Assembly: GCA_963721015.1 (NCBI GenBank)
Contig: CAVRHM010000006.1
Span: 914,154-978,153, forward strand
Reading direction: 5' to 3'
Length of the DNA stretch: 64,000 bases
Origin: an uncultured Chloroflexia bacterium
Lineage (GTDB): Bacteria; Chloroflexota; Limnocylindria; Limnocylindrales; CSP1-4
Under the pieces are notes generated by a model. That model saw nothing but the letters and a program-made list of their open reading frames with translations, was not told where the DNA came from and did not search any database. Positions 36,483 through 44,080 of the stretch are shown here, piece by piece. Made by a program: the position numbers and the translations under genes. Within the stretch, counting starts at the first letter, position 1. Each line of letters opens with the position of its first letter.

Positions 36483-38626
36483 TCACTTGGCGTCCCGGAT
36501 GGCCGGCACGAGGAAGCCGGCCAGGCCGGCGACCACACTGACCAGCCCGAACGTCGCCAGGACGAACTGGACGCCGATGAGCTCGGCCAACACGCCGCCG
36601 ACGGCCATGGCGATGGCCATCGACCCGAAGACGAGCCAGAACCGGAAGCCGACGACCCGGCCCATCAGGGCGGCCGGGGTCCGTTCCTGGAAGAGGGCCT
36701 GGCTGGGGATGACGAACATCATGTTGGCGATCCCCGACCCGAAGGCGATCCCGATGGCCACGCCCAGGTTGCCGGTCAGCGCCAGGGCGGCCACGGCGAC
36801 CCCCCATGCCGCGTAGCCGACGCTGATCATCCGGCCCTTGGCCAGGCGCGCGCCGACGAGGCCGATGACGAAGCCGCCCAGCAGGTTGCCGGCGCTGGTC
36901 GCGCCCTCCAGGAAGCCGTAGGCGGCCACGGCCTGGGACCGCCCGTACACGACGGCCGCGTAGGTCGGCATGAGCGCCGTGATCGCGCCGACGCTGAGCT
37001 GGGCCACGGACGCCTGGATGGTGTTCGCCCACAGCGTCAATTCGCTGCGCAGGAAGGTGTAGCCGGCGCGCAGCTCGGCGACGAAGCCCTGGCCGGCGCC
37101 CGTCTCGACCTCGGCGTCTTCGGCGGCGTCTTCGGCGGTCGCCGCGCGGACGACCATCGTGCTCAGCAGGAGGGCCGACCCGATGTAGGTCGCCGCATCC
37201 AGCCAGAACGCGACGGGCAGGGCGCTGCCCAGGGCCGCGACGAACAGGGCTGCCAGCGGGAAGCCGACGACGTCGGCCAGGGTCTCGCCCACCCACAGGG
37301 CGGAGTTGGCGGTCACGAGCTCGTCCTTGTCGACGAGCTGGGGCAGGATCGCCACCCGGGCCGGCCGGAAGAAGATCGAGATGGAGGTCATGACGAACAC
37401 GAGCGGGTAGACGAACAGCGGGTTGGTCACGAGGGCGATCGGGACGATCAGGACGACCGCCGCGCGCAGGAGGTCGCTGACGATGAGGACCTCACGCCGG
37501 TCCCAGCGGTCGACCAGGGTGCCCGCGATGGGGCTGACGATGAGGTTCGGGACGAACGCGGCCACGAACACGAACGCCGAGGCGATCGGCGAGCCGGTCA
37601 CGATGAGGACGGCGGTCGCCAGGGCGACCTGATGGATGCGGTCGCCGAACAGCGAGATGAGCTGGCCGGCCCACAGCGCCGTGAACGAGCCGTTGAGGGC
37701 CAGGCGGACGTACGGGTGGCGGCGGACCCGCTCCACCGCCTCCGTGGATGGCCGCGGGAGGGCGATGACCGGCGCGCCGGGGGCCGACGACGCGCAGTCG
37801 GCACGCCGGCCGCCTCGAACGCCGCGGCGATCGTCGCATCGTCGAGCCGGCCGGCCGCCGACGGTGCCGGGAGCGGCGCGAGGGCCGGCGACTTGATGAG
37901 CGGTCCCTGCGATCCGAGCATCACCGGCCGCTGCAGGCCGGCGGCAGGGTTCAGGGCCGGGGCGAGGCCGGTCTCGGCCTGGATGCCCGTGCCACCATCC
38001 GGGCGCGGCAGTCGGGTCGAGCTGGCCAGGCCAACGAGCCGGCGCCGGATGGCCTCCTCCTCGTGGGCCTCCAGGACGGTCGGGATGCGGACGACGCTGG
38101 CGAACAGGAAGAACCCGAGGCCCAGGGACAGGAACACATCGCCCAGCGATGCCACGTTGTTGAACGGCGGGACGGGGATGGGGATGACGTCGCCGAAGAT
38201 CAGGCCACGCAGCAGGAAGTCCGCCGCGTCGGCGTCCTCCACGACGACGTGGAGGTTGGAGATGACCTGCGACGGGTCGTAGCCTGCCGCGACCAGCGCC
38301 GGCTCCCAGATCGGCATGTAGCCGCCGTTGAGGAGGATGACGACGGCGTTGAGCAGGATGCCGACGAACGCGAGGCCCAGGCCCGGGTAGCCGCGGTTGA
38401 CCCACAGCCCCACCAGCAGCAGCCCGAAGCTGGCGGCCAGGAGCGGGACGCGGAGCACGTCCGCGATCGGGAGGCCGGCATCGAGCAGCGCCTCCGTCCC
38501 GAACCGGATGATGACGGCCGCGAACAGGAGCGGGACGAGGCGGAGCTGGATGGCGCCGAGGTTCACGAGCCGGCCGCCCGCGAGCAGGCCGAGCACGAGG
38601 CCGAGGATGATGCCGGCGATCAACAC
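36483..38626 (-). CDS. DUF5317-like membrane domain fused to an MFS transporter (one frameshift at ~37810)
   Basis: ORF 37598..38626: GLLAGG, LLNAVVILLNGGYMP, FGDVIP, SLGDVF. ORF 36483..38405: LWAGQLISLFGDRIH, GTLVDRWDRR, LMGRV. No start codon or SD seen at the MFS junction. Confidence 0.72.
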
Positions 38627-38756: not shown

Positions 38757-40203
38757 TCAGGCCTGTTCGGGCGCCGCCGCGGTCGCCGACGCGGTGGCCG
38801 GCAGGGCGGGCACGGCCGGGATCGTCGTGGCCGTCGGGCTCGGGTCGGGCGCTCCGCCGGTCATCCGCGCAGCGGCCTGGCCGATGAGCGGGATGGGCCG
38901 CGGCTGGACGGTCCGGCCGGGGTCGGCCACGCCCTCGACGTGGTGGGTCCGGACGAACGCATCGACGACGACCGGGTCGAACTGGATGCCGGCGAACTTG
39001 CGCAGCTCGGCGAGGGCCTGCTCGGCGGTCAACGGGGTCATCCGGTACGGGCGGGCCGCCGTCATCGCCTCGAAGGCGTCCGCGACGTGGAGGATGCGCG
39101 CGAGCTTCGGGGATCTCGTCGCCGATGAGGCGGTCCGGGTAGCCCGAGCCGTTGTACCACTCGTGGTGGTGGCGGATGATCGGCAGCTCGGGCGCCAACT
39201 TCGTGACCGGGGCGATGATCTCCGCGCCCAGGACCGGGTGCGCGTTCATGATCATCCGCTCCTCGCGGTTGAGGCGCTCCTGCTTGAGCAGGACGTTGTC
39301 CGGTACGCCGATCTTGCCGACGTCGTGGAGCAGACCGCCCCACTCGAGCGCTTCCACCTCGGCGTCGTTGACGTGCATGACTTGCCCGATGTCGACCGCG
39401 ATCTCCTTGACCCGGACGCTGTGCATCGCCGTGAACGGATCGCGCTTGTCCACCGCCTCGGCCAGCGCGCCGATCGTCTGGGTGAACATCTCGCGCATCT
39501 CGACGAAGCGCCGGTATGCCATCCGCGTCGAGTACAGCGGGATGGCAAACAGAGCGGTTGCCCACCACTGCACGACGTAGATCACGGACATCAACCACGC
39601 TAGCGGCGCGAGGGCAAAGACGCCGCCCATGATTCCTCGGATGTCGCCGATGAACACGTCTCGGGGCGATTGGCCGGTTCGCAGCCCGATTGCGGTGGAA
39701 ACGAGCGCCAAGTTGCCCACGATGAAGATCACGGCTGCGGCCATTGCCGACGCGAAGTCAGACGCAACACCCGGAAGGTACTCAAGCCATACGTGGCGGG
39801 TCACACCGGCAACGACCGCGGGTAGAACCAGTGCCGCGTGGTTGGCAAGAGTTCCATACCAGGGGACCTTTCCCCTGATCTCGCGAAGCTCCGTGGTGCC
39901 GATTAGTGCGACCCAGCCCGCGACGGCAGGCCCACCGAGGAACATCGAGCCCATGATCGGAGCGATCGCGACAGCCTGTTGTGTGCCTCGGGGCAACTGA
40001 ACAGGGAACGCCGAACTCACGAGTGTGAGCCCGATCCAATAGGCAACCCCCAGGGATGTCGCCACGCCCGCTGGGAGTGTGCGGGCCCCGTCGAGCTGGA
40101 TCGCGATAGCTGCAGACGGTTCAAAGAGAATTGTCGAGGCCATTAGCGCCAAGGCGCCAATGGCCACGACCGCGATGATGTACAGCTTCAATGAGACCGG
40201 CAT
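38757..40203 (-). CDS. Membrane-bound HD-GYP domain protein (putative c-di-GMP phosphodiesterase), frameshift near 39105
   Basis: About 6-7 N-terminal TM helices; DKRDPFTAMHSVRV, LLHDVGKIG, HHEWYNGSGYP, ILHVADAFEAMTAARPYR, QFDP. Confidence 0.9.
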
Positions 40204-40276: not shown

Positions 40277-40366
40277 CTAGAAGCCTCTAAGCGAAGCCCC
40301 CCCAGCGAGTGCGATCATCGCCACGCTAGAAAGCGTGATTGCGATACGCATAAGTTTGGCCTTCAT
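40277..40366 (-). CDS. 29-aa signal-peptide-like precursor MKAKLMRIAITLSSVAMIALAGGASLRGF
   Basis: Basic n-region, hydrophobic h-region, LAGG then a short tail; first gene under the riboswitch. Confidence 0.7.
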   Translation of the reverse strand: MKAKLMRIAITLSSVAMIALAGGASLRGF

Positions 40367-40450
40367 CGTGGTAGCTCGACTACCAGGCCTTGGCGGACTC
40401 GGGTGCCACGCTCGTTCCTCCTTCGCGGCCTCCGTGCTCCGAAAAGCACG

Positions 40451-40480
40451 AAAACCGACCAGACTCATGGTCGGTCGGTT
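40451..40480 (-). terminator. Intrinsic terminator (riboswitch expression platform)
   Basis: Minus strand AACCGACCGACC-ATGAGTCT-GGTCGGTTTT; the stem uses the 3' end of the aptamer. Confidence 0.7.
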
Positions 40481-40565
40481 GCACTACTTGCTCCGCCTCA
40501 CCCTAAGTGCCCATTTCAGGTGAGGCATCGGCGCGTCCGAGCGTCTTGACGTTGCTTCCTAGTAC
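40470..40565 (-). ncRNA. c-di-GMP-II riboswitch aptamer
   Basis: Minus strand GGAAGC...GCCTCACC-TGAAATGGGCACTTAG-GGTGAGGC-GGAGCAAGTAGTGCAACCGACC. This matches the class-II landmarks GGAAAC / AAAU-GGGCACUU / GAG-UAGUAGUGCAACCGACC, including GGGCAC-GTGC pseudoknot complementarity. Lies upstream of an HD-GYP gene. Confidence 0.8.
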
Positions 40566-40587: not shown

Positions 40588-40617
40588 ACTTTACGGATGC
40601 CGGAGTAGTACGGTCAA
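40588..40617 (-). promoter_or_regulatory. Putative promoter of the riboswitch-peptide operon
   Basis: TTGACC-N18-TAAAGT just upstream of the aptamer. Confidence 0.5.
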
Positions 40618-40636: not shown

Positions 40637-43600
40637 CTACAGGGATTCGAGGGGGATTGGCTCTGTGCCGAGCTCGTCGCGAACGTAATTGGCATAGTGT
40701 CCGTACTGTTCGGCGGCAGCCGCGTGAGCTCCCGTCGCTCGGTACAGGCGAAGCAGCGCAACCTCGACCTGCTCAGCATCCGGATCCACTTCTAGGGTGC
40801 GTCGGGCAAGCGCAATCGCGCGATCGTAGTGACCGGATCCGAAGTCAGCCCTGACCGCGCGTTCCAGGATCTCGAGGTAGGCGGCATGGAGACCGTCGCG
40901 GTACGCACTCGACCACTCTTCGTACTCGAAGTCCATCGCGAAGCGGCCACGATACAAATCCGCCAGAGAGGCTATGTCGGTTGGGCTCGAATGGGCCGTG
41001 ATCTGGCGGATGAAGACTCGGCACTGGATCGACCTGCTTGTCACCAACTCCGGATCCAACCACACGACGTCACCGTCGTGATGAACGTATCCCGGTGACA
41101 AATCCTCCGCAAAGTCTTCCTCAAATACGCGGCGGAGGAAGTAGATGGTCTGGTTAAGCGAGTTGACAGCGACATCCGGATCCTGTTCAGGCCAAAGAGC
41201 ATCGAGGACTTGGTCTCGGGTCGCGGAGGAATTCGGTCGCGTCAGGAGGAAGCAAAGTAATGCTAAGACTTTGCGCCGAATCGAGGACCCTGCGACCTCT
41301 GAGTCTCCGATCCGGATGGCCGTTCGGCCCTGGTCTTCCACGAAGACTCGATCTGCAAGCCGGCGTGCGAGAGTTCGGCCAAGCATGGCCACGTAGCGCC
41401 GCCGCTTGACTCCTCGGGCGAACTGCCGAAGGAGGGCGATGTCGGCCTTTTCGCCGATCTCCTCGAGCATCTCGGCGGCTCGGAGGCGCTCGGCTCTGGG
41501 TTCTTGCACCAGCTTCCGCAGCACGGCGCGCCAGCGGTCTGGATGAAGGCGCGCCGCCCGCAGGGCCACATCTACGGCTTCATGTGTCAGGTCGTCGAGA
41601 CGATCGGCGACAAGGTCTGCGACCGCTGTGATGTGCCATAAGTGGTCATGTCCGATGACTACCAGGGATCGCGAAGCGGCTTCAGGGCTGGTGGCAAGTG
41701 CCTGAAGGATCTCGCCGATGCGCCTGTTCGCATAGAGGCCCGATCCAGTCGCGGACTGCTGAGCTTGAGTGAGGATCCCACGACTGTGGCCCGCGTCAGT
41801 GAACAGGTCGCATTGGGCGACAAGCAAGTCTCGACTCGACGCGATGCCGACCATCGTCGCGACACCTTCGGGGTATTGCCTGAGAATGGCGCGAGCCTCA
41901 GTTGGGCGGCCATCGCGAAGCGCCATGCGTGCGGCGGTCACCACCCATAGCCGACGTTCCGCAACCGACTGGGTCGACAGGTCGCCGACGCGTTCAAAGA
42001 GCTGAAGCGCTGTATCGGGGTTGCCCCATCCATCGAACGCTTCCGCGGCTTCGAGGAGAACGTCGTTCTCGAGAGCGCCGCCGCCGCTCAAGAGGCCGTC
42101 GAGGAGCGCCAAGGCCTCCGAGAGTCGACCGAGTCGTGCCAGGACGGATATGAGGAGCGCCGTGGCTGCGTTCCGTTCGAGCTTGGACGACGTGTCGCCG
42201 AACGCTTCCAATGCCTCTCCAACCTCGCGCTCAGCATCGGCAAGTCGGTCCTGTTGGACCGAGATCGTGGCGAGGTTGTACATCGAGACACCAAAGTGAT
42301 GGACCTGCGCATCTCGCTGGTCCTTGGCCATCGATCGGAGCAGTCGGATTAGGGACTCGATGTCGGCAGCTGTCTCGAGTCGGAGGAGCGCAGCGGAGGC
42401 TCTCGCGATCGATCGCAGGTTGGGGTCGGAAGTCGTCGACTCAAGGTGGTCGGCCAGTACGAGTGCCCGCTCCCCGTATCCATAGTTGAAGCTGACAGCG
42501 AGCAGATTCAGCATCGCGTGGTCGCGTTCCACAGGGCCAGCGGAGGCGGAGTCCAGCACCGCCTGGGCTGCGGCCGTTGCTGCTTCGAAGTCGCCCTCCT
42601 GGTAGTCGATCCGCCCTTTGATGAGTTGTGAGCCAGGCGGCATGATTTCGCTTGGGGCGTCGACGACGAAGGCTGCGGCGAGCGAATACTGGGCGTTGCC
42701 CATGATGGTCGGGACCGCGTCGTTGATGACGTCCAGCATGGTCTGGAGGTCGTGGGCCTCGCGATAGTGGTGGGCCGCGACGCGCCAGTCGGTCGAGGCT
42801 GCGGCCGCGCCGGCCCGACGGTGGAGATCGTCGACGTCAGCATCCCCATCCGCGGATCGGAGGCGGGCCTCGAGGAACTCGCGGACGAGCGGGTGATAGC
42901 GAAGATGGGTCCGCGGCCCGCCGGACACTCGACTCAACAACGTCAATCGCTCGGCGTCGATCGTCAGCCGGGCGACCTCCGGTCCCGGTTCGTCGCTGAC
43001 CACCTCGGCCATCTCCGGCGTAACGATCTGAAGGACCGACGTGGTCATGAGGAAGCGCTGGAGGTCCTCGGGCAGGTCGCCGACGACCTCCTCGGCGAGA
43101 TAGTCGTAGAGGTCACTGTCCGCGCCGCTCAGGTCGCGCACGAATTGGCGGATCTCCCTGGGCGTGCGATTGCGCAGGGCGGCCTGGACGAGCTGCAAAG
43201 AGGCGATCCACCCCTCCGTCCGGACGGCTAGATCGCGCAGGATGTCCGGCTCGATGGACCGGCCGTAGGTCTCGGTGAACAGCAGGGCCGTTTCGCTCGC
43301 GTCGAACCGGAGGTCATCCGTGCCGACCTCGGCGACCTCGCCGACCGCGCGAAGGCGCCCCAGCGGTATCGTCGGCGCGCGACGGCTGGCGAATGCGATC
43401 GTCAACCGCTCTGGCGCTCGAGCCACCAACTCCCGAGCGACGTAACGCGCGTCCGGTGCGTCGTCGACGAGGTGGAAGTCGTCGAAGATCAGGAGGGCGC
43501 CACCCTCTACCATCGCCGACAGTTCGCGGACGAACGTCTCGACGACAGCGTCTCGGGTCGGCCCGCCGACGCCGATCTCGGCTAGAAGGGAGGCCGTCGT

Positions 43601-44080
43601 CGGCGCGAAGCCCGGCTCATGCTCCCGGCCGGCGGCGACAAGGTGGTGGAGGATCGAGGTCCAGTCGCGATCGTCCGCATCCAGTCGATACCAGAGGGTC
43701 CGGACGCGGGTCCGACGCGAGAAGTCGGCGAGCAACGTCGTCTTGCCGAAGCCAGCGTCAGCGATGAGCAGGATGACCCGATGGTGGAGCTTGGCGGCCA
43801 GCCAATCGAGCAGTCGTGGTCGCGCCAGCGTCTCGTCACGGAGCGCGGGCGGCTGGACCTTCGCGAGCTGGACGGGGAATCCGACGACCTCGTCGCGCAG
43901 GGGTCCACCTCTTCCAAGCGGGACCACGCCAGACGCCGGGCCCATGCCGACGTCGGCTGGCGAGCGACTCACCGACGCCCGGGCTGACGCCAGCTGTCCG
44001 AGCGGCGCGAACGATACCGAGCGCTCCGGAGGAGCGTCAACGGAGGCATCCAGGACTGTGCGTTCCCGCATCTTCGACAT
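40637..44080 (-). CDS. MalT-like STAND ATPase-TPR regulator with C-terminal SARP (winged helix + BTAD)
   Basis: ADAGFGKTT Walker A, LIFDDFH Walker B, TEGWIASLQL, YHPLVREFL; C-terminal RRKVLALLCFLL...DQVLDALWPE, LYRGRF, VDPDAE...LLRLY. Confidence 0.88.
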   Translation of the reverse strand: MSKMRERTVLDASVDAPPERSVSFAPLGQLASARASVSRSPADVGMGPASGVVPLGRGGPLRDEVVGFPVQLAKVQPPALRDETLARPRLLDWLAAKLHHRVILLIADAGFGKTTLLADFSRRTRVRTLWYRLDADDRDWTSILHHLVAAGREHEPGFAPTTASLLAEIGVGGPTRDAVVETFVRELSAMVEGGALLIFDDFHLVDDAPDARYVARELVARAPERLTIAFASRRAPTIPLGRLRAVGEVAEVGTDDLRFDASETALLFTETYGRSIEPDILRDLAVRTEGWIASLQLVQAALRNRTPREIRQFVRDLSGADSDLYDYLAEEVVGDLPEDLQRFLMTTSVLQIVTPEMAEVVSDEPGPEVARLTIDAERLTLLSRVSGGPRTHLRYHPLVREFLEARLRSADGDADVDDLHRRAGAAAASTDWRVAAHHYREAHDLQTMLDVINDAVPTIMGNAQYSLAAAFVVDAPSEIMPPGSQLIKGRIDYQEGDFEAATAAAQAVLDSASAGPVERDHAMLNLLAVSFNYGYGERALVLADHLESTTSDPNLRSIARASAALLRLETAADIESLIRLLRSMAKDQRDAQVHHFGVSMYNLATISVQQDRLADAEREVGEALEAFGDTSSKLERNAATALLISVLARLGRLSEALALLDGLLSGGGALENDVLLEAAEAFDGWGNPDTALQLFERVGDLSTQSVAERRLWVVTAARMALRDGRPTEARAILRQYPEGVATMVGIASSRDLLVAQCDLFTDAGHSRGILTQAQQSATGSGLYANRRIGEILQALATSPEAASRSLVVIGHDHLWHITAVADLVADRLDDLTHEAVDVALRAARLHPDRWRAVLRKLVQEPRAERLRAAEMLEEIGEKADIALLRQFARGVKRRRYVAMLGRTLARRLADRVFVEDQGRTAIRIGDSEVAGSSIRRKVLALLCFLLTRPNSSATRDQVLDALWPEQDPDVAVNSLNQTIYFLRRVFEEDFAEDLSPGYVHHDGDVVWLDPELVTSRSIQCRVFIRQITAHSSPTDIASLADLYRGRFAMDFEYEEWSSAYRDGLHAAYLEILERAVRADFGSGHYDRAIALARRTLEVDPDAEQVEVALLRLYRATGAHAAAAEQYGHYANYVRDELGTEPIPLESL

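Follow-up and report, generated by a model that had tools for sequence, protein, structure and literature searches.

Several described systems come close to the locus reported here. The signal peptidase LspA (MEROPS A8, PF01252; 5DIR, 6RYO, 6RYP), a small polytopic membrane protein with four membrane helices and a β-cradle between helices 1 and 2 (PMC6952399), carries two conserved aspartates, 17–19 residues apart, at the outer membrane surface; the first sits in a β-hairpin strand and the second, with a conserved Asn before it, within the opening turn of the final helix. Its presumed substrate is a helix of the signal-peptide type that ends in small residues, with a lipobox that terminates in a diacylglyceryl-modified Cys. 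In peptidase-containing exporters and pheromone processors (C39-ABC transporters/PCATs, AgrB-AgrD, and LspA plus Eep and PptAB in the case of the enterococcal pheromones), a small precursor gene adjoins that of a membrane processing protein joined physically or genetically to an exporter, and the short peptide, which differs between lineages, comes after a conserved junction of the cleavage type. MgrB-PhoQ, SafA-PhoQ and AcrZ-AcrB pair a roughly 30-residue membrane peptide with a membrane sensor or transporter, and the MASE9-HD-GYP proteins, among them T. maritima TM1467 and S. venezuelae HdgA, carry a MASE9 sensor that is thought to bind a ligand inside the membrane (Galperin and Chou, 10.1101/2021.11.05.467447).

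Features of each of these recur in one operon within a 64,000-nucleotide stretch of DNA from an uncultured Chloroflexia bacterium, hereafter the window, where a DUF5317 gene is accompanied by a micropeptide gene, a membrane HD-GYP protein and an MFS transporter (Table 1). The DUF5317 frame runs from a GTG start at 38626 to 38066 on the minus strand, and its product is a member of Pfam DUF5317, matched over residues 26–174 at 84.6 bits, above the gathering score of 25 (E 9.5e-24). We favour, at a probability of about 0.38, the reading that DUF5317 is a new-fold aspartyl peptidase, analogous and not homologous to LspA, which would cut the junction of the micropeptide.

Table 1. Features of the DUF5317 operon and its surroundings, in positions of the window.
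Feature	Position	Strand	Description
MFS_3 / MFS_1 exporter-type transporter	36483..37732	(-)	PF07690 E 2.7e-26, PF05977 E 9.9e-23
Low-complexity linker DUF5317-MFS, predicted cytoplasmic	37733..38065	(-)	holds frame break between about 37760 and 37886
DUF5317 domain, residues 1-187	38066..38626	(-)	PF17248; five predicted membrane helices and a β-rich insert, predicted to face outward, between helices 4 and 5
Asp163 (S-x-G-D)	38138..38140	(-)	third residue of last predicted membrane helix (161-179)
Asp146 (GDVIPIP)	38189..38191	(-)	first residue of predicted hairpin strand 1 (146-150)
NGGYMPIW motif, residues 100-107	38306..38329	(-)	predicted outer end of helix 4
Membrane HD-GYP phosphodiesterase, weak MASE9-like N-terminal sensor	38757..40203	(-)	HD_5 E 1.7e-22
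29-codon micropeptide gene MKAKLMRIAITLSSVAMIALAGGASLRGF	40277..40366	(-)	positive start, 13-residue hydrophobic core, junction AGGA, tail SLRGF
c-di-GMP-II riboswitch aptamer, head of operon	40464..40547	(-)	RF01786, 65.6 bits vs gathering score 53.5, E 2.8e-13, full length
Promoter-like site TTGACC-18-TAAAGT	40588..40617	(-)	consensus scan only
STAND-type regulator (AAA_16, TPR, Trans_reg_C, BTAD), upstream	40637..44080	(-)	Pfam

An earlier note on this DNA had taken DUF5317 for an LspA-like protease, citing the motifs VGILLN, NGGYMP, FGDVIP and SLGDVFLSLG and two aspartates 17 residues apart. All four motifs are present in the translated gene, in the order VGILLN(93)AVVILLN(100)GGYMPIW, FGD(146)VIPIP and SLGD(163)VFLSLG, D146 and D163 do lie 17 residues apart, and the LspA motifs had been given correctly, the family of this genome's own LspA having invariant GGAxGNxxDR, VxD122 and NVAD140. 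The kinship itself did not hold up. PF01252 has one match in this genome, to the canonical LspA encoded on contig 2, and leaves the DUF5317 gene of the window unmatched; hhalign of DUF5317 against LspA reaches a probability of 14–15%, aligned through N-terminal DUF5317 residues 7–82 and not through the claimed motifs; and the DUF5317 model does not have the fold of peptidase family A8, on which the earlier note had staked its reading beforehand. Foldseek returned no LspA chain for it at E ≤ 10, whereas the model of the genome's own LspA, as positive control, matched 5DIR, 6RYO and 6RYP with E-values of 5e-12 to 3e-11 and TM-scores of 0.68–0.87. Judged from the sequences, the motif resemblance by itself is at chance level. 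That DUF5317 might be a highly diverged A8 homologue, freed from the requirement for a lipidated Cys, we regard as very improbable: a suboptimal hhalign alignment does pair D146 with D122 and D163 with D140, together with the hairpin-helix element (probability 0.8%, E 0.068), and the two dyads are spaced alike (17 residues vs 18 in the LspA of this genome), but DUF5317 has five predicted helices with its β insert between the fourth and fifth, against four helices and a cradle after helix 1 in LspA, and nothing in it corresponds to the Asp and Lys of LspA helix 1 or the Asn and Gly of the cradle, which are among the 14 residues conserved in LspA. Rejecting this kinship keeps a tempting but wrong annotation of DUF5317 from spreading. 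A role of DUF5317 as a substitute for LspA was likewise rejected, canonical LspA being present in this genome and in 31/31 sampled Chloroflexota genomes.

The likeness that stands is local. In the AlphaFold2 model of DUF5317 (pLDDT 92.1, pTM 0.85), which has helices at residues 2–15, 31–49, 53–76, 83–99 and 161–179 and strands at 104–107, 126–129, 146–150 and 157–160, the first Asp opens a hairpin strand and the second is third in the final helix; the LspA model places D122 within strand 120–128 and D140 third in helix 138–155, and in both proteins a conserved Asn precedes the second Asp. This architecture counts for the peptidase reading, as do the couplings I150–A159 and I143/L142–L161, which agree with the modelled hairpin and helix contacts. 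The insert (residues 100–160) holds seven acidic residues and one basic, and the predicted cytoplasmic loops are basic; this charge distribution, together with a C-terminus leading into an MFS domain with a cytoplasmic N-terminus, would place the insert on the outer face, a location that speaks for a peptidase as well. The spatial adjacency of the two aspartates, on which the earlier reading also depended, very probably exists: the hairpin 146–150/157–160 running into helix 161–179, the couplings, the charge distribution and the topology of the fusion suggest that D146 and D163 adjoin at the outer membrane face, much as the LspA pair does.

As modelled, the DUF5317 fold is without any solved structural relative. 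Foldseek found no neighbour of the model in the PDB, a PDB sequence search with the single DUF5317 protein gave no match, and hmmscan of seven DUF5317 proteins gave no match at E ≤ 10 to any peptidase family in Pfam (A8, A22, A24, U4); this want of likeness to peptidase families by Pfam, PDB profile search and Foldseek counts against the peptidase reading. The sole PDB match of the family profile, carbamate kinase (E 0.54), is a chance match on NGGG. An intramembrane aspartyl peptidase of the GxGD type (A22 presenilin/SPP, A24 prepilin peptidase) was rejected since the motif here is S-x-G-D and the first Asp is predicted to lie in an extramembrane strand, and Foldseek found no match to such structures.

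Conservation within the family is far above chance. Both aspartates, whose invariance the earlier note had proposed as a check, are retained at about 99% among 386 family sequences in an identity range of 25–70%, D146 as Asp in 320/323 unique sequences and D163 in 305/306, which counts for the peptidase reading. Further residues are strongly conserved: S160 in 306/307 and G162 in 306/306 unique sequences, N100 in 349/363, G102 in 357/362, and M104 and P105 each in 356/361, with S160, G162, N93, G102, M104 and P105 each at 98% or more. An invariant acidic pair at the membrane interface also fits non-catalytic binding of a cation, a lipid or a peptide, however, and the further conserved charged residues R41, E45 and R59 inside the helices point to binding or transport; both count against the peptidase. 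Almost as likely as cleavage is that DUF5317 serves as a non-catalytic membrane partner, which binds the uncut micropeptide by its helix and x-Gly-Ala junction and signals to a MASE9-type sensor, gates the fused MFS transporter, or both. By analogy with MgrB or AcrZ and their partners, the Asp pair would then hold the peptide tail or a cation; a basic residue (R/K) conserved in the tail could pair with the aspartates, and DUF5317, as described above, resembles no peptidase. Set against such a partner, the near-total invariance, across phyla, of the two Asp, the Ser-x-Gly-Asp and the Asn would be more expected of a catalytic site than of one that binds a tail varying by lineage.

The micropeptide gene lies about 1.6 kb upstream of DUF5317, a position it keeps in at least 60 of 80 Limnocylindria loci, where the end AGGASL[RKQN]GF is nearly invariant. 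The product of ORF 40366..40277 (…IALAGGASLRGF) bears out the Cys-less L-A-G-G that had been claimed for the precursor, and as a candidate substrate it differs from those of LspA in that, having no Cys, it would not be lipid-modified. It appears to be built like a signal peptide, with the N-terminus predicted inside and the tail outside. Among distant Chloroflexota loci with DUF5317, 19 of 20 have a micropeptide, including four loci without a nearby HD-GYP gene, and across Chloroflexota x-Gly-Ala invariably closes the helix, with tails that vary between lineages. Of 80 unique peptides, all have Ala at −1, 79 have Gly at −2, and none has Cys at the junction; the motif was defined after the peptides had been seen, which weighs against the peptidase reading, whereas the constant company of peptide and DUF5317, the conservation of the junction and a strand control, in which the motif occurs in 18/31 candidate micro-ORFs on the DUF5317 strand vs 0/17 on the opposite strand, weigh for it. 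The universal junction somewhat strengthens the earlier proposal of an aspartic peptidase cutting the neighbouring Cys-less peptide. Two identical tandem peptide genes at one locus also count for the peptidase reading; they suggest a consumed product and so tell against the non-cutting partner too, as does the 13-residue hydrophobic core with small residues after it, which suggests a signal peptide that can be cleaved rather than a stable anchor of 20 residues.

Since the x-Gly-Ala junction obeys the −3/−1 small-residue rule, type I signal peptidase might do the cutting, or nothing might, and DUF5317 would be otherwise active on the outer face, where it might assist the MFS transporter in handling lipids or ions, or serve as receptor of the released tail. 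We hold this to be unlikely. Type I signal peptidase is blocked by Pro at +1, which is present in 6/19 peptides and argues against that enzyme in those lineages as it argues for the peptidase reading; the invariant Gly at −2 is not required by it; and two loci (L166, L169) keep peptide and DUF5317 linked though HD-GYP and MFS are both absent. In its favour, the second DUF5317 copy of the genome has no recognisable peptide gene beside it, which also counts against DUF5317 as a peptidase, and in a look through the whole genome for further partner peptides only that of the window was convincing; the recurrent association with MFS_3, described next, favours it too.

Within this class, the MFS_3 exporter part is normally C-terminal in the same protein as DUF5317 (e.g., P0128, P0139, P0151 and P0214), and unbroken DUF5317-MFS frames of 612–753 aa are found across the class. 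In the window, sequence comparison indicates that DUF5317 is the N-terminal module of such a fusion, split in this assembly by one indel: in tblastn, intact same-genus fusions (685 and 740 aa) change frame within the linker. The earlier note had overlooked this fusion. MFS_3 is fused to or adjoins DUF5317 in two different gene orders, and this recurrence counts for the peptidase reading, although a tail already outside needs no exporter, so that the fusion is not neatly explained by it. LspA differs in this respect, DUF5317 being fused to MFS while the genome keeps its canonical LspA separate. The peptidase-containing exporters and pheromone processors differ further: the DUF5317 module, new in fold, would rely on Asp where they use Cys/His or zinc; an MFS takes the place of their ABC transporter; their soluble double-glycine leader has its counterpart here in a hydrophobic signal-like helix; and processing and signalling by the DUF5317 system are putative.

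The remaining genes tie the locus to c-di-GMP. The HD-GYP frame of the window is broken at about 39106–39110, as mapped against a same-genus orthologue, and its MASE9 match (E 0.004) is below the Pfam cut-off. An HD-GYP gene lies near DUF5317 in 16/20 distant loci, histidine kinases do so in L167 and L168, and in the distant locus L085 a true MASE9-HD-GYP gene overlaps DUF5317 and is translationally coupled to it; a STAND-type regulator directly precedes peptide and DUF5317 also in L001, L002, L166 and L169. Sensors of such differing output, and a MASE9 domain thought to take its ligand within the membrane, favour a non-cutting partner of the micropeptide. In MgrB-PhoQ, SafA-PhoQ and AcrZ-AcrB, by contrast, there is no dedicated third protein such as DUF5317, and the peptides have no conserved signal-peptidase-like junction; the description of the MASE9-HD-GYP proteins mentions neither DUF5317 nor a micropeptide (10.1101/2021.11.05.467447).

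Under the peptidase reading, N93, N100-G-G-x-M-P, D146 and S160-x-G-D163 would form a pocket on the outer face, into which the 29-residue micropeptide from the same transcript would insert its outer end. The two aspartates would cut at x-Gly-Ala, where the peptide helix ends, with no need for a lipidated Cys. A short tail, SLRGF or ASLRGF at this locus, would thus be set free outside the cell, and the hydrophobic stub left behind would be removed or exported by the fused MFS exporter. The c-di-GMP-II riboswitch would switch the operon, and the MASE9-like sensor of the membrane HD-GYP protein would probably sense the peptide or what is made from it.

A literature search found no paper that mentions DUF5317. 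Its constant pairing with signal-peptide-like micro-genes and c-di-GMP membrane sensors suggests a candidate ligand or partner for MASE9, a possible new family of membrane peptidases, and a peptide layer over second-messenger control. A wider proposal, which we consider rather doubtful, would make DUF5317 the founder of a group of new-fold juxtamembrane aspartyl endopeptidases that reached an LspA-like dyad independently and mature widespread, unannotated micropeptides with a Gly-Ala junction. The ligands still missing for MASE9-type c-di-GMP enzymes and kinases would then be the tails, particular to each lineage, or the hydrophobic stubs, and at the present locus the system would stand under c-di-GMP riboswitch control and be coupled to an MFS exporter. 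The family comprises 1961 cluster representatives at E ≤ 0.001; DUF5317 is present in 92/301 sampled Chloroflexota genomes, and is found also in Thermus thermophilus and Thermotoga maritima.

DUF5317, an uncharacterised membrane domain with a new fold, is part of a conserved module of micropeptide and c-di-GMP components and is a good experimental target. The family is large, with 1961 matches at E≤0.001 when 1.84 billion cluster representatives were scanned in full with HMMER, and the term 'DUF5317' was absent from the papers of the literature searched. Of 301 Chloroflexota genomes, 92 carry PF17248, and only two of the genomes sampled from the window's class lack it. It is also present in two control genomes, those of Thermus thermophilus and Thermotoga maritima, which offer tractable or well-studied hosts for testing the family.

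The earlier note proposed that DUF5317 is an aspartic protease akin to LspA, the lipoprotein signal peptidase II of peptidase family A8, and that it cuts a neighbouring Cys-less peptide. The motif strings behind this proposal (VGILLN93...N100GGYMPIW, FGD146VIP and SLGD163VFLSLG) are all found in the window frame, with D146 and D163 17 residues apart. Across 29 relatives at 43-71% identity, N100, G102, M104, P105 and W107 are invariant and both aspartates nearly so, the exceptions being visibly frameshifted sequences, and in ten members at 24-31% identity N93, N100, G102, M104, P105, F137, D146, S160, G162 and D163 are all invariant. Pooling proteins and loci gave 386 unique sequences; D146 is kept in 320/323, D163 in 305/306, S160 in 306/307 and G162 in 306/306. 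This genome has a second, stand-alone copy of 176 aa that also keeps both aspartates (locus L147, 6602-7132; contig 6, 265679-266098); no partner micropeptide was recognised near it, and it adjoins a DinB_2 gene, with a membrane GAF-GGDEF-EAL protein encoded about 1.8 kb away.

An AlphaFold2 model built from a 50-sequence alignment is confident (pLDDT 92.1, pTM 0.85) and predicts helices at residues 2-15, 31-49, 53-76 and 83-99, an insert containing strands 104-107, 126-129, 146-150 and 157-160, and a final helix at 161-179. In this model D146 opens the first strand of a hairpin whose second strand passes without a break into the last helix, which has D163 as its third residue. Mean-field coupling analysis, with an effective number of sequences (Meff) of 194, supports this arrangement by recovering I150-A159, I143-L161, L142-L161 and several pairs between helices 4 and 5. 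In the insert 7 residues are acidic and 1 is basic, basic character marks loops 16-30 and 77-82, and the C-terminus leads by way of a linker rich in Arg into an MFS transporter with a cytoplasmic N-terminus. From these features we infer that the N-terminus lies outside and that the insert presents both aspartates at the outer face.

LspA has four helices, a β-cradle after helix 1 and a catalytic dyad near the outer surface; it carries 14 conserved residues and cleaves a Gly-Cys* bond in a lipidated substrate (PMC6952399). The kinship claimed with it was not borne out. In this genome PF01252, the LspA family, has a single match, a canonical LspA on contig 2 (1.9e-36); each of the 31 Chloroflexota genomes sampled has one or two, and DUF5317 is never among the matches. 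Nor did hmmscan (E≤10) assign any of seven diverse DUF5317 proteins to a peptidase family. Profile-profile comparison with two independent LspA alignments gave a probability of 14-15% (E about 0.002), the best alignment pairing DUF5317 residues 7-82 (GLLAGGrLvNL) with the GGAxGNxxDR helix of LspA rather than the claimed motifs. With Foldseek, the DUF5317 model found only five irrelevant matches in the PDB (E≥7.5), while the genome's own LspA, modelled as a positive control (pLDDT 78), returned 5DIR (E 4.7e-12) together with 6RYO/6RYP (E about 2.5e-11), at TM-scores of 0.68-0.87. DUF5317 was accordingly rejected as an A8 member on profile, fold, conserved residues and substrate alike, and true homology is highly improbable. 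What the two share is a local element: the modelled LspA has D122 within strand 120-128 of its hairpin (120-128/131-136) and D140 as residue three of its final helix (138-155), just as DUF5317 has one aspartate in a hairpin strand and another third in its last helix. With hhalign, D146 is matched to D122 and D163 to D140 only in a suboptimal alignment of 0.8% probability (E 0.068); the resemblance is an analogy at chance-level statistics, compatible with convergence and no evidence of descent. Of the original interpretation, the two-aspartate site and the peptide partnership stand, without the kinship.

The small upstream ORF of that interpretation is present, with the translation MKAKLMRIAITLSSVAMIALAGGASLRGF. 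With phmmer, such a micropeptide is detected in at least 60 of 80 Limnocylindria loci, about 1.6 kb upstream of DUF5317 and on its strand, the hydrophobic core being freely variable and the end, AGGASL[R/K/Q/N]GF, almost fixed. In 20 distant Chloroflexota DUF5317 loci, we found a same-strand HD-GYP gene within 2 kb in 16, separate genes in the order HD-GYP, MFS_3, DUF5317 in 5, and a signal-peptide-like same-strand micro-ORF in 19. Two loci without HD-GYP (L166 and L169) have the order regulator, peptide, DUF5317; in two others (L167 and L168) the micropeptide immediately precedes a membrane histidine kinase and DUF5317 lies at a distance of about 1.6 kb, and since the kinase here replaces HD-GYP, the module uses different signalling outputs. 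Another distant genome (locus L157) carries two identical tandem micropeptide genes (MKWATLKMKVIYGLMVIASLVMAAGADSRWA; 1806-1901 and 1962-2057) upstream of HD-GYP and DUF5317. Tails differ by lineage (…AGGANITV, …AAGADLKWH, …GAGAPEDGGG.., …AAGAEGKWV), and the helix ends in x-Gly-Ala, with Ala at position -1 in 80/80 and Gly at -2 in 79/80 unique peptides. By a junction motif defined post hoc from peptides already examined, 18/31 candidates on the DUF5317 strand score against 0/17 on the opposite strand, and 17 candidates in the 6.8 Mb genome, only the window's being convincing.

Direct interaction between DUF5317 and the micropeptide is the most economical reading, because the invariant outward pocket and the invariant peptide junction match in topology and because their linkage persists in different gene orders and lineages. 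We tentatively favour a putative cleavage, by a peptidase analogous to LspA but unrelated by descent (probability about 0.38), given the short hydrophobic core of 13 residues, the enzyme-like invariance of DUF5317, its LspA-like local geometry, its fusion to an exporter and the Pro found at +1 of the junction in 6/19 non-Limnocylindria peptides. Pro at this position is not accepted by type I signal peptidase. Almost as likely as cleavage is a non-catalytic role, in which DUF5317 would bind the peptide and act with the MASE9-type sensor or the MFS. It is rather unlikely that DUF5317 has some other role while type I signal peptidase does any cutting.

Many family representatives are proteins of 600-750 aa in which a linker joins DUF5317 to a complete MFS. 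In the window's class PF17248 mostly lies within open frames of 612-753 aa, and in same-genus genomes frames of 685 and 740 aa are intact, so the break in the window's linker splits what is one gene in related genomes into DUF5317 and MFS parts, probably through a long-read assembly indel. In HD-GYP, the C-terminal 110 residues continue in a frame ending at 38757, and a same-genus orthologue (locus L148, 391-1851) is unbroken. Assembly indels are likely for these breaks, as the relatives are long-read soil metagenome-assembled genomes of Limnocylindria.

Features of the DUF5317 operon and its surroundings in the window
Feature	Position	Strand	Details
STAND/TPR/BTAD regulator	upstream of operon		
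Promoter-like site	40617..40588	minus	
c-di-GMP-II riboswitch	40547..40464	minus	full-length; RF01786, 65.6 bits, E 2.8e-13
Hairpin and U-rich stretch	about 40439-40480	minus	from sequence; shares bases with the aptamer closing (3') stem
Micropeptide gene	40366..40277	minus	29 codons
HD-GYP frame break	about 39106-39110	minus	single switch, at about 39108; beside C4 run
DUF5317 domain	GTG start 38626	minus	first 187 residues of frame; PF17248, E 9.5e-24, residues 26-174
DUF5317-MFS linker frame switch	about 37760-37886	minus	single switch

The operon runs from the promoter-like site through riboswitch, micropeptide, HD-GYP and DUF5317 to MFS_3. The overlap of the hairpin and U-rich stretch with the aptamer's 3' stem suggests, at the sequence level, that the riboswitch may be an ON switch, and a c-di-GMP riboswitch heading an operon with a c-di-GMP-degrading HD-GYP suggests a feedback loop. 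The MASE9 match of the operon's membrane HD-GYP is sub-threshold; a true MASE9-HD-GYP gene on a low-GC contig (locus L085, 788-2624) overlaps the start of a DUF5317 gene by 11 nt (translational coupling), with a 46-codon ORF 3' of DUF5317.
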